Source: Crassostrea angulata
Lineage: Eukaryota
Length of the DNA: 64,000 bases
Assembly: GCF_025612915.1 (NCBI RefSeq)
Contig: NC_069115.1
Coordinates: 8,295,492 to 8,359,491 of the forward strand
Direction: 5' to 3'
Shown: positions 18,031 through 39,775 of the stretch, piece by piece
Numbering within the stretch: the first letter of the stretch is position 1
Layout: each line of letters begins with the position of its first letter
Position numbers and translations under genes: made by a program
Notes under the pieces: generated by a model
The model's database searches: none
The model's input: the letters and a program-made list of their open reading frames with translations, nothing else
Told to the model about the DNA's origin: nothing

Positions 18031-18162
18031 ATGGCGGGCGTGTTGGCAGGGTGCCAGATCGTCCTGGACCTCAGCACCAGTGTTGGCTTCAAGAAGAAAC
18101 GGGAAGTCAGGAGTACCATCACACAAAATGGAGGAGTCATCTCCTACATAGTTACCAAGAAG
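18031..18162 (+). CDS. PARP4: PARP4 (vault PARP) exon 1, ATG start, BRCT domain N-terminal part
   Basis: Encodes MAGVLAGCQIVLDLSTSVGFKKKREVRSTITQNGGVISYIVTKK; ends at the donor AAG|GTACAC; aligns to the N-terminal BRCT of human PARP4 (..KENGGKFSFSLNPQ). Confidence 0.75.
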
Positions 18163-18503
18163 GTACACAATGTAATACTTCCTTGCAAAGTGAGACAACC
18201 TTAGTCTGCAGACATCTGTAGAAACCAGGCAGATTACAGTGTCATGCAGTTGTCTAGTTGAGACTGATATTTACACTAGCTGTCCTCTCAGTGCAACATA
18301 ATTACACATTCACAATACTTTATGCTATAATGGAAATTGATATCCATTTCAGGAGATTACTTTTAATATTTCCTTGTTCATTCTTATATACCCATTATAT
18401 GCATATCTAATAGAAAGACGTTAGTGCTTTAGGTTACATAAGGAAAGAATAGGTAAATTTTGATTCATAAAATTTAAAAAATCTTTTCATAATTGTCATG
18501 TGC

Positions 18504-18526
18504 AGAGAGAGAGAGAGAGAGAGAAG
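18504..18526. repeat. (GA)11 microsatellite in PARP4 intron 1
   Basis: Direct read. Confidence 0.9.
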
Positions 18527-18947
18527 CTATTTACACATTTATCAAGTTAGGTTGTAGTCCCATACCAGTGAAATCATTATGTCCCTACTTCAATCTCCAC
18601 GCTTTTTACATTATGTGTGAGAAAATGATTTAAAATTTTTTGTTTAGCTTTATAATTAAGAACGTAAAATCGTGTTGGAGTTTTTTAAGAGATTGTTTTT
18701 TTAAGATCAACAGATGATAAAGAAATTTTAAAATTTTAAAAGACTTGTTTTTGTTATTTACTTGTCAAATTCGTCCTGTAAAAAATTTTGATCAAATGCT
18801 CTCAAAATCTATTTAGCACATAAAATGACAATTGGTGGTTTCAGCAGCTAGGGACATATGTATTGCTTATACATTTTTCCCAGAATGCTTGTTATTATTT
18901 TAATTATGATTAAGTTGTATTATCTTTGATTTTTTTGATACCTCTAG

Positions 18948-19146
18948 AGTACCCATGTTGTGCTGAATGATGCAGAGAAAGCAGATGTCAGCTATAAATG
19001 TAAAATGGCAGCAAAGTTCTGCATCCCTGTGCTTTCACTGGATTTTATTTTTGACTGTATCAGTCAAGGGAAGCTACTGGACACAGACAATTACCTTCTG
19101 GTCGGGAAAACAAAAGCACAGGAATTCAGCTCAGGCAAAATTTCAG
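18948..19146 (+). CDS. PARP4: PARP4 exon 2 (BRCT domain)
   Basis: Acceptor CTCTAG|AGT; encodes STHVVLNDAEKADVSYKCKMAAKFCIPVLSLDFIFDCISQGKLLDTDNYLLVGK..; matches human THIILDNADVLSQYQ..DFIWKSIREKRLLDVKNY; donor TCAG|GTAAGT; ends in phase 1. Confidence 0.8.
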
Positions 19147-19990
19147 GTAAGTTAACAAACCTGAAAAAATTTACAAGGGGGTTGGGGTTAAGTTAAAATT
19201 AAAAAAAATAAAATAATACAGCTTTTCAATGAACATCATTATCCTTTATCATAACGTATGTATATAGCAAACAGAGTCCGGGGGTTTGTAGGAATTATCA
19301 TGCCTTTCTGTATGTCTACGGTATATTACATTTCAATCACAAGTAGCGACAATAGAAAAAACAAGGAGATAAACGCTGGTCTGATTTTAATCAGATTGTA
19401 TTACATTTCTGATCATACGTTTTAAGAAGAAACATTAGAAGTTCAAAATGGGGACAAAGAGTGCTAATGACCTGAGGGTGTGTCATGGCCCTGACCTATT
19501 TGACAAAAGTCAAGGTCGGTGAAATACAGGGTCTCATCTAGGGTCACATATTTAATATAATTATAAGAATGTAACCCCCTTCTACCATTGCACACATTAC
19601 TTTTATTTCACTTTAAGTGAAAATCATTCAATAAAGATTAACCCTTGCCCTGCTGTATTGTTATCAAATCAAAAGAGCACCTGTGCTGAATTGTTTTGAA
19701 AAAATCACATGTTGAGGACATCAATTCGTGACCTGTATACAGTAGGAATCTCATTCATGTGCATGTTTATGTGCAATCATGTACAATTTATCCTCTCTAT
19801 TATCTTCAACATGATGGGATTTGGGGAAAAATTCAAAATAATGATATCATGCAAAGCTTTGAGATACAGTGGTTTATTTTTGAAAATCATACAGAAACGG
19901 TGGTTGAGGCTTTCAACTCGCATTGCCATGGTACATGTACATACATCTACAAATGTACTGATGTTTGACATTCATGTACCAGAATTACTG

Positions 19991-20212
19991 TGGAATCATT
20001 AGATTTCGTGGTGGCTCAATTTTCGTGGAATTCGTGGGTACCTCTCATCCACGAAATAACATCCCCCATGAATTAATAAATTAGGGCTATAAAGTCATAT
20101 TCCTCTTGCATGTATACGAAAATACACGAAATTACGTCCCGACAAACCTGTAAAATTTAAGCAATCCACGAAAATTGGCCCCCACGAATTTTAATGATTC
20201 CACAGTAAACTG
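19991..20212. mobile_element. MITE (~225 bp), TIR TACTGTGGAATCAT / ATGATTCCACAGTA, internal CGTGG/CCACGAA motifs (copy 1, PARP4 intron 2)
   Basis: TTACTGTGGAATCATTAG at the left and ATGATTCCACAGTAAAC at the right; two more copies lie elsewhere in the window. Confidence 0.6.
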
Positions 20213-36822: not shown

Positions 36823-37232
36823 CAGCCTGTCTCTGGCTTGCCACTTGGTTTTTAACTTTCACACCTACATGTACAAGCCTGACAGTGTATCTTCTACTTC
36901 TTAAGATAAGGTAGTGGGGGTCGGAACACTGAGACACTGCAGACCTCAAGTGTTTACCGTTATTCCGTGTCATTTACCATAGGTATTCAAGATTCATAAC
37001 TTGCTCTACTGTTGTCAAACTTGGGTGCTGGGAAGATGCATATAATGGAAAATGAAGTTGCAACGATAGTTATATTCTCTTGATGCAGGGTTGTTAATTA
37101 ACATACTGTACCATTAACTGGTACACAGTATAGTCTGACTGTTTAATGCCATAGGCACTGAATTAAATGTCATTGAGATCGGTTCATTTTCATTTTAGCA
37201 ATCAATTTTACATGAAATTGTTTTCATTAAAG

Positions 37233-37409
37233 GAATTGGAAGAGCTGAAATCAACAAACAGTGAAGAGAAGTTCTTGAGAGAGGAAAGGGGGACATCATC
37301 AAGTGAAGAAGAAGAAGAAGAAGAGGAGGAGGAGATTTTAGAAGAAAATGGGAAAAAGGGAAAGTCAAGGAAATTTCTTTCAAGAATGCGATCATGCAGA
37401 ATACCAGTG
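37233..37409 (+). CDS. PARP4: PARP4 exon 28 (acidic/basic linker)
   Basis: Encodes ELEELKSTNSEEKFLREERGTSSSEEEEEEEEEEILEENGKKGKSRKFLSRMRSCRIPV, loosely compared with human ..LSKRKHRKIPFSKRKMELSQPEVSEDFEEDG; acceptor CATTAAAG|GAA; donor GTG|GTATGA; phase 0/0. Confidence 0.6.
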
Positions 37410-38489
37410 GTATGAATTTAATTAAATCTATTTTTAATCATATGTTTGTTTTGAAAAAAATTTTAGGTACTGGAACATGCTTACTGAAAAGTTGGGGTTT
37501 TTTTGGCAGTCGTATTAAGGCAAGAAGTCCAAATCTCACCAAGAATCATTTAAAAGTACAATTTTAGTACCCATTGTTGTATTTAATTGTTTTATTCAAT
37601 GAAATACTGTAAACGTATTATATTTGGCATGTACGATATTTGGTGGAAATTTAATTTGTATTTGAACAAGTTGGTGTGGATTTGAATTAGCGTATTCCTG
37701 AATGTGACTATTCTAATACATATATGCATGGCATTTATGGATGTACTTGATTTAGCGGACGCCGCATTCCGCCAAAAGTTCTAAATAGAATACACAGCCA
37801 AATGTAATACATATACAGTAGAACATGTAAATAAAAATAAATTCTAAGTAGTTATTCAATGAATTTGGTTTAAATATTGCAGCAGCTTTATTGAAGTACA
37901 TAACTGTCATGTACTTTGTTAAGTTTTCAAAATTCTATGGAATTGAATTGAATTTTCAAAAATCTCCAAATCTAGTTATTTTAATATTCATAATCAGCTG
38001 GCTTCAAATAATATACCTGTATTACTCACTTCATAAAGACTTTTACCTTTACCTTTATAAGAATTAAGGCGGACATACTTTGTATGATAAGACTTCTTAA
38101 TAAGCTTTTAATTTTATGCTGTTTATGTACCACCGAATTTGCTTGTTATATTTCACAAATACTCTCCACTACTATAGAGAATCAATCACTTAGACAGAGA
38201 ATATGATTATCTGACCTTGACCCTTCATGACACAAGGACCTCCATTGTTGCTGAGTTTTCATCATGTTCATTTTGATCAGTTTTTCAGACTGACCTTCCC
38301 TATGACTTTGACTGCATTATTTCTTATATTGACCCTATATATCCCAGCTTCAAAGACAGACAAAAGTTTATACAGTTTTAATCCAACTATTTTATCAATT
38401 TGTAATCAAAATTGTGCATAAAAACCAAAATTCAGTTATCATATTGTAAGTATCAAAACTATAAGTCTGAGTAAAAAATTTGATTGCAG

Positions 38490-38724
38490 CAGGCTACAGT
38501 CCCAATGGCCATGATGGCATCAGAAGTTTCCTTTCAAGCTTCACCAGATAAGATAACTGCTGATTTTAATGTGTATGAGGATTTAGATAAGCAAGATGTG
38601 ATGCATGAAGAACAAGACCCCTCTGCTCAGGCCAAGTATAGGATCAAGATGGGGGGACTTGGCTACAAGGGGGACATAGTGAGCAGGGGACTGAAGGACA
38701 CCTGTGTTGAGAGTGAGGTTACAG
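38490..38724 (+). CDS. PARP4: PARP4 exon 29 (divergent C-terminal region)
   Basis: Acceptor GATTGCAG|CAG; ORF QATVPMAMMASEVSFQASPDKITADFNVYEDLDKQDVMHEEQDPSAQAKYRIKMGGLGYKGDIVSRGLKDTCVESEVT; donor ACAG|GTAAGA; phase joins exons 28 and 30; no clear human match. Confidence 0.5.
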
Positions 38725-39188
38725 GTAAGAAATAGGAAACTGAATTAGTTACTGGTAATACTGTACTAAAGCAATGTAATATGAGGTCACAAGTAAGACA
38801 AAGTCTCAAACAGGTTAGAATACAAGTAGAGCAATGTAATGACATATATAATATCTAATAATGTCTTAAGACAGGGCTCCATCAAACCTTGTAGCTTTAA
38901 AGTTTTCTGAAGAACATGATTATTTGTTTATTTCACTTAGTTTGAGCCAATAAATCTAAGACTGACACTTTCACTGTAAAGTAACTGTTTATGTGCTTTA
39001 AAACATTGCTTTTTCTGCATTATGATGAAATTGCAACTTGTAAAATAAATGAAAAATATCATAAGCTTTCTTTTTTTATAAAATAAAAAGCCTTAGGGAA
39101 ATTAAACACCACCCTGTCACATCTGTTTTTGTAAATATTGGCCTGATAAACAAGTAATTAATTTTTATGGCCTTACTCTCTTTGCCAG

Positions 39189-39775
39189 GTTCCAAACCAA
39201 GAGTTGAGAAAGTTATAGATGAATCTACAGGTAGCCCCACATTTTATGGGTCTGCTAAAGGTTTCAAAGAATCAACTTTAAAAATAATGAGAAAAAGGGG
39301 GTTTTTTTGCAGGAGGTCGACAGGTGTAATATCTGTAAATATAGATCAAACATGTTCACTACCTCCTACACTAGATCCTAAACCACTTCCTACACTAGAT
39401 CCTACACCAACTCCTACACTAGATTCTATGCCACAGCCTCCTGTATTAGCTCCTAAACCTATACCACCAGCACTCGAAGTGGAGCCTAATTTTTACAATT
39501 CACTATCAAATCGATCCCAAACAGTTTTAAGTAAACAGGCACGTATACCAGCTTTACCAAGCATGGAAGCTTCTAGGTCTTCTGATGAACTGCAGCCCCG
39601 GTTAAAATCTACACAGCCTGTTTCGTGGAGATCATGTCCATTACCCCTTCACAGGCCCTCAAAGAAGAGAGTACTTTCTCCACCTTCAGATCCCTTTGTG
39701 TCAATTTATGATGAATCTGAACCACTGTTGGGAGAGGAGAATGTCCCCCTCATCCAAGCATTCCCCCGGATGTGA
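39189..39775 (+). CDS. PARP4: PARP4 terminal exon (proline-rich C-terminus, stop TGA at 39773-39775)
   Basis: Acceptor CTTTGCCAG|GT; a 195-codon ORF rich in P/S/T (..TLDPKPLPTLDPTPTPTLDSMPQPPVLAPKPIPP..), like the proline-rich tail of vertebrate PARP4; the last ~10 codons and the stop lie inside a repeat copy; internal introns cannot be excluded. Confidence 0.5.

Follow-up and report, generated by a model that had tools for sequence, protein, structure and literature searches.

The 64,000-nucleotide stretch of Crassostrea angulata DNA analysed here (NCBI RefSeq assembly GCF_025612915.1, contig NC_069115.1, positions 8,295,492 to 8,359,491 of the forward strand), in the following called the window and numbered from its first letter, has a G+C content of 36.8%, contains zero N and carries on its + strand a gene for PARP4 (vault PARP). 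A previous sequence-only reading of this DNA had described a complete PARP4 gene of 30 exons confined to 18031-39775. The reconstruction presented below favours instead, with a probability of about 0.8, a single PARP4 gene that would span 18031 to 62557 and that is affected, in this assembly, by an insertion and a nonsense codon.

The PARP4 orthologue and its exon chain

Exon-like stop-free segments are found on the + strand between 18 and 40 kb, and their rough concatenation was used as a query against 5.8 billion proteins. The best match was PARP4 of Crassostrea gigas (XP_019920273.1, here P0001; 1285 amino acids), followed by PARP4 of mussels, scallops, gastropods, a hemichordate, amphioxus, corals and vertebrates. 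PARP4 proteins occupy the top ~100 matches, while proteins with VIT and VWA domains only (P0115, P0116) come at E-values of 1e-5 or weaker. The C. gigas protein and the window product share 93.2% identity over 1216 aligned residues and the same exon order, and the synonymous divergence (dS) from two other oysters amounts to ~0.07 and ~0.16. Judged by these comparisons, the locus is securely identified as PARP4, as the sequence-only reading had proposed, and represents the orthologue in an oyster of the Crassostrea/Magallana group near C. gigas. An ITIH-like protein, to which the VIT and VWA domains would fit, has a practically negligible probability and was excluded, as PARP catalytic and BRCT domains share the same open reading frame (ORF) and all top matches are PARP4. 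The gene as such is not new, PARP4 being annotated already in C. gigas and other molluscs.

A tblastn search of the window with P0001 gave 26 colinear exon matches from 18031 to 35876, and a junction search based on GT/GC...AG borders, frame compatibility and the best alignment to P0001 placed canonical GT-AG sites at all 25 introns between the 26 matched exons. The model was extended past exon 26 by four exons chosen by splice site and phase. This independent, homology-guided rebuild arrives at 30 exons, 4731 nt and 1576 codons with a single terminal TGA at 39773-39775, and the same numbers of phase-consistent exons, nucleotides and codons had been obtained by eye in the sequence-only reading, in which exons 1-26 were delimited accurately and exons 27-30 plausibly. 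The stitched ORF is real, far beyond chance.

Exon 1 (18031-18162) contributes the ATG and amino acids 1-44, matched by tblastn to amino acids 1-44 of P0001, and ends at the donor gtacac; exons 2 to 26 were all placed by tblastn and the junction search, with the additional support given below. Pfam searches of the 1576-residue product located a BRCT domain at amino acids 4-93 (PF00533, E 4e-7; BRCT_2, PF16589, E 8e-10), encoded by exon 1 and exon 2 (18948-19146). Exons 3 (20326-20474), 4 (21040-21180) and 5 (21463-21627) lead to exon 6 (22012-22149), in which a PARP regulatory-like helical region starts (amino acids 299-375; PF02877 at a sub-threshold E of 0.0075), followed by exons 7 (22404-22571) and 8 (23349-23497). 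The PARP catalytic domain covers amino acids 416-573 (PF00644, E 3.7e-29) and is spread over exons 9 to 12, each of which is backed by comparison with the human PARP4 structure 8sx1: exon 9 (23649-23783) holds the histidine of the H-Y-E triad in PLFHAS, exon 10 (23880-23978) the tyrosine in GIYFASSA, exon 11 (24691-24874) the motifs TSIKYS and GYHSVHGV, and exon 12 (25481-25625) the glutamate in DDEFVVY. All three residues of the triad align to the human PARP4 positions, and the catalytic region as a whole matches 8sx1 at an E of 1.7e-50 versus 1.7e-14 for PARP2.

The VIT domain (amino acids 631-742; PF08487, E 9.3e-36) starts in exon 13 (25944-26074) and continues through exons 14 (26600-26824) and 15 (28631-28801). 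Exons 16 (29055-29165) and 17 (29406-29537) precede the VWA domain at amino acids 877-1035 (VWA_3, PF13768, E 1.1e-17, and also PF00092), which is encoded by exon 18 (30002-30188; with the DxSxS motif DSSNS of the metal ion-dependent adhesion site type), exon 19 (30320-30393), exon 20 (30956-31143) and exon 21 (31988-32087). All four peptide motifs quoted in the sequence-only reading occur on the + strand (23953-23976, 24692-24709, 24818-24841 and 26678-26731), the last of them supporting exon 14. Equally, each family it had suggested for a profile check (PF00533, PF00644, PF08487, PF00092) was found in the conceptual translation, and the order BRCT, PARP, VIT and VWA agrees with Pfam, close to its mapping of domains to exons.

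Exons 22 (32332-32499), 23 (32695-32775), 24 (33049-33129), 25 (33544-33645) and 26 (35781-35873) follow, the last being the final exon with clear homology to C. gigas PARP4. Beyond it, nothing in 35.9-40 kb was matched by tblastn of 116 PARP4 homologues, and Pfam gave no match in the tail of the 1576-residue product. Putative exon 27 (36264-36347; phase 0-0), placed by splice sites and phase, is a diverged tandem copy of exon 26 that the C. gigas models do not have. Exon 28 (37233-37409) encodes an acidic run with a weak match to the acidic tail of C. gigas. Putative exon 29 (38490-38724) corresponds in position and in its ...TG/SKP boundary to an actin-like exon of an older C. gigas model (P0127), to which it is barely alignable and beyond Pfam detection. 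The proline-rich part of exon 30 (39189-39743) has an ORF that is conserved in the Logan contigs P0117-P0126.

A transposable element within exon 30

A search with the translation of exons 29-30 recovered ten short contig ORFs from public read assemblies, with identities from 98% down to 60%, each covering exon 30 only. All ten extend beyond the stop of the window: they read ...EPLLGEEN-DMNVDITLQGKLLPSEEGEKSTRG, versus ...EPLLGEEN-VPLIQAFPRM-stop in the window. The continuation DMNVDITLQ...STRG is nevertheless present in the window, 5.1 kb downstream at 44866-44934. Furthermore, three related contigs present an empty site, as L001 (99.3% identity to the window), L002 (94%) and the more distant L003 follow the window colinearly as far as 39743 and continue directly at 44860. 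The 3' part of exon 30 (44866-44934, DMNVDITLQGKLLPSEEGEKSTR-G) ends in phase 1 at the donor ag/gttagt.

The interposed 5,116 bp (39744-44859) are AT-rich and bounded by terminal inverted repeats (TIRs). Inverted repeats of 133 nt at 99% (39814-39946 versus 44704-44836) and of 46 nt at 100% (40106-40151 versus 44820-44865) were found, a perfect 40-nt TIR core occurs within the window only at 40112-40151 and 44820-44859, and the hexamer AGAATG is repeated at 39738-43 and 44860-65, common to both junctions. Terminal read-through aside, the element holds zero ORFs of its own of 70 or more amino acids, and no transposase ORF. Because of the TIRs, the 6-bp flanking repeat and the precise empty site in relatives, the segment 39744-44859 is identified as a recent insertion of a non-autonomous TIR element within coding exon 30. 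In these features and in its lack of coding capacity it resembles non-autonomous TIR DNA transposons of the type of miniature inverted-repeat transposable elements (MITEs), while its size of 5.1 kb and an internal foldback are unusual for a simple MITE. The foldback is a perfect 87-nt inverted duplication at the left end (39738-39824 versus 40025-40111), which includes the flanking AGAATG and, seen from the minus strand, resembles a junction of right end, AGAATG and left end. The element may have been rearranged, or the duplication may have arisen in assembly.

A 15-nt target duplication (TGGGAGAGGAGAATG at the exon flank versus TGGATGAAAAGAATG at the element end) was considered as well and rejected, as the two differ by 4 mismatches while the TIRs are 99-100% identical, and only AGAATG is shared.

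The bases 39744-39775, that is the last 11 codons, one of them straddling the junction, and the stop, belong to the insertion, so that exon 30 does not end at 39775. The claim of a complete gene closed by a proline-rich tail does not hold up against this, since the stop at 39773-39775 was donated by a 5.1-kb insertion absent from related contigs and the proline-rich stretch is an internal linker. The chain of 30 exons is certainly open and phase-consistent, includes all four N-terminal and central domains, and a read-through exon-30 transcript of this particular haplotype would stop at 39773-39775. As a description of the gene, a complete PARP4 of 1576 residues is, however, very improbable: three related contigs lack the element that supplies the stop and the 10 whole codons preceding it, native exon 30 continues to a conserved donor, and a PARP4-specific docking domain is found downstream on the same strand. 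An exact look-up of the insertion-truncated exon-30 ORF gave no match, a result that is uninformative for short ORFs.

The evolution of exon 30 itself points further downstream. Its ratio of nonsynonymous to synonymous substitutions (dN/dS, Nei-Gojobori) between the window and L002 or L003 is 1.05 and 0.97, respectively, so that the exon is under no constraint at the amino acid level. Even so, an open frame is maintained over 203-230 codons despite several many-codon insertions and deletions, and the acceptor (tttgccag/GT) and the donor (ag/gttagt) are conserved as far as L003. Such behaviour would be expected of a disordered linker that keeps downstream domains in frame, and an open frame without sequence constraint argues for something important encoded downstream.

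Behind the exon-30 donor, L003 has a short intron and then an exon starting with GPVIQGRDLGTDSDLLPPP. This start of exon 31 is present twice in the window, at 52334 and 53043, within a tandem duplication (52169-52416 versus 52867-53131, 83%). Exon 31B (53043-53440) is rich in proline and glutamine, and its phase 1 acceptor fits the exon-30 donor; its own 3' donor (aga/gtgaac) is tentative. Exon 31A, an alternative or duplicate copy supported by the duplication and by exon 31 of L003, is delimited at its start only (52334-52416). Included in the duplication are the end of exon 30, intron 30 and the first part of exon 31, which provides two candidate acceptors for exon 31 (52334 and 53043), and 52654-52686 likewise corresponds to 44935-44967. 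A tblastn search of 44.9-56.4 kb with the C. gigas linker (P0129 amino acids 96-760) gave no credible match, and the window showed no FG-repeat block. By these sequence comparisons, the linker from exon 27 to the first HSP70-like exon described below is structurally plastic.

Downstream exons and the MINT-like domain

The cluster of P0001 includes an older merged C. gigas model (P0127; CGI_10013249 / UPI0005C35CC1) of 2168 amino acids, and RefSeq lists LOC109617861 as the neighbour of the C. gigas gene, with products of 886 and 902 amino acids (P0128, P0129). In the latter, Pfam recognizes an actin N-terminal fragment, FG repeats and a region resembling the substrate-binding domain (SBD) of HSP70. 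The HSP70-like region of P0129 and of P0132 is matched on the + strand of the window at 56378-58162 by four exons, H1 (56378-56500), H2 (56943-57047), H3 (57567-57687) and H4 (58068-58162), all placed by protein match, H4 in addition by phase. Exon H1 carries a GC donor (cag/gcatga, 56500/56501) where GT would be expected.

P0132 was retrieved with the HSP70-like exons as query and is an ORF of 392 amino acids on a 1390-nt contig that represents a spliced mRNA. Its product begins in the HSP70-like region and continues for ~190 further residues. These are encoded in the window, with canonical splice sites and consistent phases, by four exons, C1 (61128-61182), C2 (61291-61400), C3 (61904-62003) and C4 (62241-62557), the last with the normal stop TAA at 62555-62557. 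This mRNA contig (L004), from a related oyster, aligns block-wise to H1, H2, C1-C4 and the 3' untranslated region, which extends at least over 62558-62693 (L004 aligns over 62233-62693 at 98.5%). The phase is consistent at all junctions from H1 to C4.

Among the 116 homologues, the only match outside 18031-39775 was that of a fish PARP4 C-terminus at 62468-62602 (tblastn), the lead that directed the search to the MVP-interaction (MINT) domain. In human PARP4, MINT comprises residues 1562-1724 and binds major vault protein (MVP) repeats 3-5 via helices 4-5 and 7-8, with K1618, S1614 and R1689 among the contacts (PMC12280208). With phmmer against PDB sequences, the oyster domain corresponds to human PARP4 residues 1578-1706 (11jf, 9bw6, 9bw7), a match that is weak alone (E 0.62). 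A hidden Markov model (HMM) built from the 24 longest (>100 amino acids) of 44 vertebrate PARP4 C-terminal matches, which like P0132 supports exons C2 to C4, scored 35.5 bits (E 1e-9) against the window domain, compared with 8.6 bits for the best of 2000 composition-matched shuffles; a precomputed match of P0132 to PF26156 (PARP4_MVP-ID) is faint. In an alignment with four vertebrate PARP4 C-termini, to which the identity is about 21-29%, a tryptophan (W17) and an SLG motif are invariant, and the C-terminal motif Y..C..LELG..WE....LG is largely kept. Taken together, profile score and conserved motifs argue that 61291-62557, beginning with exon C2, encodes a homologue of the vertebrate MINT domain.

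The reverse search, in which the oyster domain was compared by phmmer with 1.84 billion representatives, found 31 proteins. In the unionid Potamilus streckersoni (KAK3593675, 2363 amino acids) BRCT, PARP, VIT and VWA precede a terminal MINT-like domain, and in the chiton Liolophura sinensis (XP_064611003, 2150 amino acids) such an end follows BRCT, VIT, VWA and FG repeats, with no match to the PARP catalytic domain. Other matches are confined to the C-terminal half: KAK3096544 of Pinctada imbricata (742 amino acids; HSP70-like and MINT-like, named in UniRef a "PARP4 MVP-ID C-terminal domain-containing protein"), "PARP4-like" isoforms of Argopecten irradians (~1280 amino acids) and LOC132545763 of Ylistrum balloti (701 amino acids). 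On the other side, the vertebrate MINT profile had zero matches in the other invertebrate PARP4 models P0002-P0015 (1139-1371 amino acids), and separate MINT-bearing models exist in the same taxa, in Ylistrum, Argopecten and, as "POM121", Aplysia. This suggests that annotated mollusc PARP4 genes are widely truncated at the 3' end or split. Many public mollusc models are probably cut in the low-complexity linker and hence without the MVP-interaction domain, the feature by which the enzyme is tied to vaults. This is of importance for comparisons that seek to date the entry of PARP4 into the vault.

Transcription unit, sequenced allele and window repeats

With the insertion removed, exon 30 was joined to 31B, from there by the tentative donor at 53440 to H1, and then through H1-H4 to C1-C4. 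The extended ORF has 6192 nt and 2063 codons with one internal stop, TAA at 62426-62428 (codon 2021). Most likely, the locus would be one transcription unit of ~44.5 kb (18031-62557) with ~39 coding exons and ~2060 codons, in which BRCT, PARP regulatory-like helices, an ADP-ribosyltransferase with H-Y-E triad, VIT and VWA would be followed by a long, fast-evolving linker (acidic run, degenerate actin-like exon, proline/glutamine-rich exons), an HSP70 SBD-like module and the MINT-like domain. By analogy with human PARP4, NAD+-dependent ADP-ribosylation would fall to the N-terminal part, and attachment of the enzyme to the inner face of the vault shell to the C-terminal domain.

The enzymatic and the MINT-bearing half probably belong to one gene. 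The terminal domain is PARP4-specific and is terminal in vertebrates as well as in the full-length models of the unionid and the chiton, and the merged C. gigas model P0127 links the N-terminal half to the HSP70-like region. CGI_10013249, the first-generation C. gigas PARP4 model, was listed among HSP70-family genes in an oyster study (PMC8303352), which indicates that both regions were modelled together. A gene fission into two adjacent genes, one for the N-terminal enzyme and a separate one for a protein of linker, HSP70-like module and MINT, appears unlikely, although RefSeq splits the C. gigas locus in this manner (XP_019920273, 1285 amino acids; LOC109617861, 886-902 amino acids), split models occur also in Pinctada, Argopecten, Ylistrum and Aplysia, and the sole transcript seen, mRNA contig L004, covers the 3' part alone. 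Besides the position of the terminal domain, the exon chain is colinear and phase-compatible, and the two Ylistrum halves record the same longest contig (1,729,599 bp), consistent with a location on one contig. The RefSeq PARP4 model runs into an intron at its end and LOC109617861 starts at an internal methionine of the merged model, the usual picture when a gene model is disrupted within a low-complexity linker.

Several further observations weigh against a single docking-competent PARP4 gene, as does the split in RefSeq. The join from exon 26 to H1 is based on splice-site phase, conserved open frames and comparison among molluscs; exons 27 and 29 are matched by none of the 116 PARP4 homologues, and the donor of exon 31B at 53440 is weak. 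Exons H1, H3 and H4 share only 47-68% amino acid identity with the C. gigas-like mRNA and with P0129, whereas their neighbours H2 and C2-C4 share 94-98%; at the DNA level, H1 is 77% identical and H3 and H4 are undetectable. This unevenness seems too great for simple orthologous divergence at a dS of ~0.07, and paralogous exon replacement is one possibility. With regard to the terminal domain, no MVP-ID family was listed for either P0132 or fish PARP4 when both were scanned locally with Pfam, and the AlphaFold2 prediction from a 6-row alignment is weak (pLDDT, the predicted local distance difference test, 59.8; 8 helices). Finally, conservation of the PARP4-contacting residues of MVP is reported to be confined to vertebrates (Lodwick et al., PMC12280208), and docking in molluscs is therefore not assured.

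The last exon contains a second lesion. The premature TAA at 62426-62428 lies 43 codons before the normal stop, at a position that is GAA (Glu) in relatives. The intact last-exon ORF of 98 amino acids (P0166), with Glu at this position and identical at the 97 other residues, is present on 40 public Logan contigs, which means that the species' common allele is intact; an exact look-up of the truncated 55-residue ORF found none, which is uninformative for ORFs this short. The assembly appears to carry a private nonsense change or a base error at 62426. In the phmmer alignment the stop corresponds to about human residue 1667. The docking domain would be shortened by its final 43 residues (~human 1668-1706), including the region equivalent to the R1689 contact and that of helices 7-8. 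As far as can be judged from the sequence, the haplotype probably encodes a predicted catalytically competent, non-docking protein, or else an unstable mRNA. In the sequence-only reading the exons had been called intact and the gene confined to 18031-39775; neither statement can be kept, as exon 30 is interrupted by the insertion and resumes at 44866, the last exon has the TAA at 62426-62428, and the docking domain is encoded at 61128-62557, some 22 kb past the end of that interval.

It is possible, if less probable than real lesions, that the 3' lesions or the whole 3' half are assembly artefacts and that the gene of this individual is normal. The perfect 87-nt inverted duplication including AGAATG and the TIR identity of 99-100% would fit such an explanation and count against the preferred one, as does the fact that one base only separates the stop from a sequence found on 40 contigs. 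On the other hand, the element shows what characterizes a real insertion, namely TIRs, a 6-bp flanking repeat and a precise empty site. Oysters commonly carry loss-of-function alleles and polymorphic insertions of transposable elements.

Compared with known systems, the reconstructed PARP4 gene shares the acidic run, the actin-like exon, the low-complexity linker and the HSP70 SBD-like module with the merged C. gigas model, while window exons 27, 29, 30 and 31 differ from the C. gigas models, both of which stop short of the MINT exons by reading into the intron after H4. The window allele differs from C. gigas also by the transposable-element insertion and the nonsense codon. The domain order from BRCT to the C-terminal MINT is that of human PARP4/vPARP (1724 amino acids; 8sx1, 9bw6, 9bw7, 11jf), but the oyster protein would be ~340 residues longer, has an HSP70 SBD-like module before MINT and, in contrast to the human protein, is a vault component by prediction only. 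Potamilus KAK3593675 and Liolophura XP_064611003 combine N-terminal PARP4 domains and a terminal MINT-like domain at a comparable length, in contrast to the oyster without the HSP70-like module. Pinctada KAK3096544 has the same succession of proline-rich/acidic linker, HSP70 SBD-like module and MINT, but its annotation is that of a protein of its own that lacks the enzymatic half.

Vaults of sea urchins contain homologues of vPARP and TEP1 (PMC550661), and MVP is an abundant protein of mussel gills and annotated in C. gigas (PMC5302490). The conclusion of the sequence-only reading that this mollusc has vaults is reasonable and already known. A late arrival of PARP4 in the vaults of "higher" organisms has been suggested (Lodwick et al., PMC12280208). 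That a conserved MINT-like domain is present in bivalves and in a chiton does not fit easily with this suggestion, although it would be no proof of docking. If real, a naturally non-docking allele could reveal roles of PARP4 inside and outside vaults. Equally, the stop of an open, phase-consistent exon chain may be donated by a transposable element, and calls of "complete" genes in transposon-rich oyster genomes need to be checked against an empty site or an orthologue.

Fragments of abundant proteins, located within or behind the linker, were seen in the invertebrate PARP4 models P0007, P0014, P0144, P0011, P0102, P0129 and P0137. In caenogastropods these are ubiquitin (P0007 of Littorina, P0014 of Batillaria), in P0144 ubiquitin followed by MINT, in amphioxus (P0011 of Branchiostoma) and in one transcript-like contig the C-terminal half of 14-3-3, in Crassostrea the N-terminus of actin and the HSP70 SBD, and in Pinctada the HSP70 SBD. 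Some may be model merges with neighbouring genes. Tentatively, and with rather more doubt than confidence, the PARP4 linker might be considered a hot-spot that captures fragments of abundant cytosolic proteins as exons and keeps them lineage-specifically, with the HSP70 SBD-like module and actin fragment of the pearl-oyster/oyster lineage, the ubiquitin of caenogastropods and possibly the 14-3-3 of amphioxus as examples. If so, invertebrate PARP4 would bring differing adaptor or cargo-binding modules into the vault lumen, and MINT docking would predate vertebrates, contrary to an occupation of vaults in "higher" organisms only.

The introns of the gene contain repeats, as the sequence-only reading had noted; repeats and MITE-like pairs were found, whereas its hAT and SINE (short interspersed element) labels could not be verified. 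Rfam at gathering thresholds identified zero RNA families in the window, neither tRNA-derived support for a SINE nor a vault RNA. MITE-like inverted-repeat pairs lie in intron 2 (19985-20208), intron 10 (24079-24660) and intron 25 (33716-34850). A short dispersed element occurs at 19962-20081, 55893-56030 and 58173-58285 and translates as ...CGII.F.GG..F..F.G...PR...; its copy at 19985-20208 is MITE-like with 38-nt inverted ends. Intron 14 contains an array of 4.9 copies of 146 bp (27228-27934), and a 17-bp repeat (6.4 copies, 97% matches) is located at 36710-36817 in the intron after exon 27. Arrays of tandem repeats of 166-173 bp, with 84-89% similarity, occupy parts of the long introns that follow exon 30 (45209-46090, 5.2 copies) and H4 (58682-59233, 3.2 copies), with fragments at 55311-55538. 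Helentrons carry dispersed satellite-like arrays in C. gigas (PMC7492417), which the 146-bp and 166-bp intronic arrays of the window resemble.

Upstream of the gene, a 21-bp minisatellite of ~10 kb (4480-14361) consists of two inverted arrays, 4480-8635 and 8896-14361 (~198 and 260 copies), the second with a 315-bp higher-order repeat at 92% matches. Its G+C content is ~50% versus 37% for the window, and the strand skew switches between the arrays. The minisatellite is open in all six frames and therefore gives rise to many spurious long ORFs.

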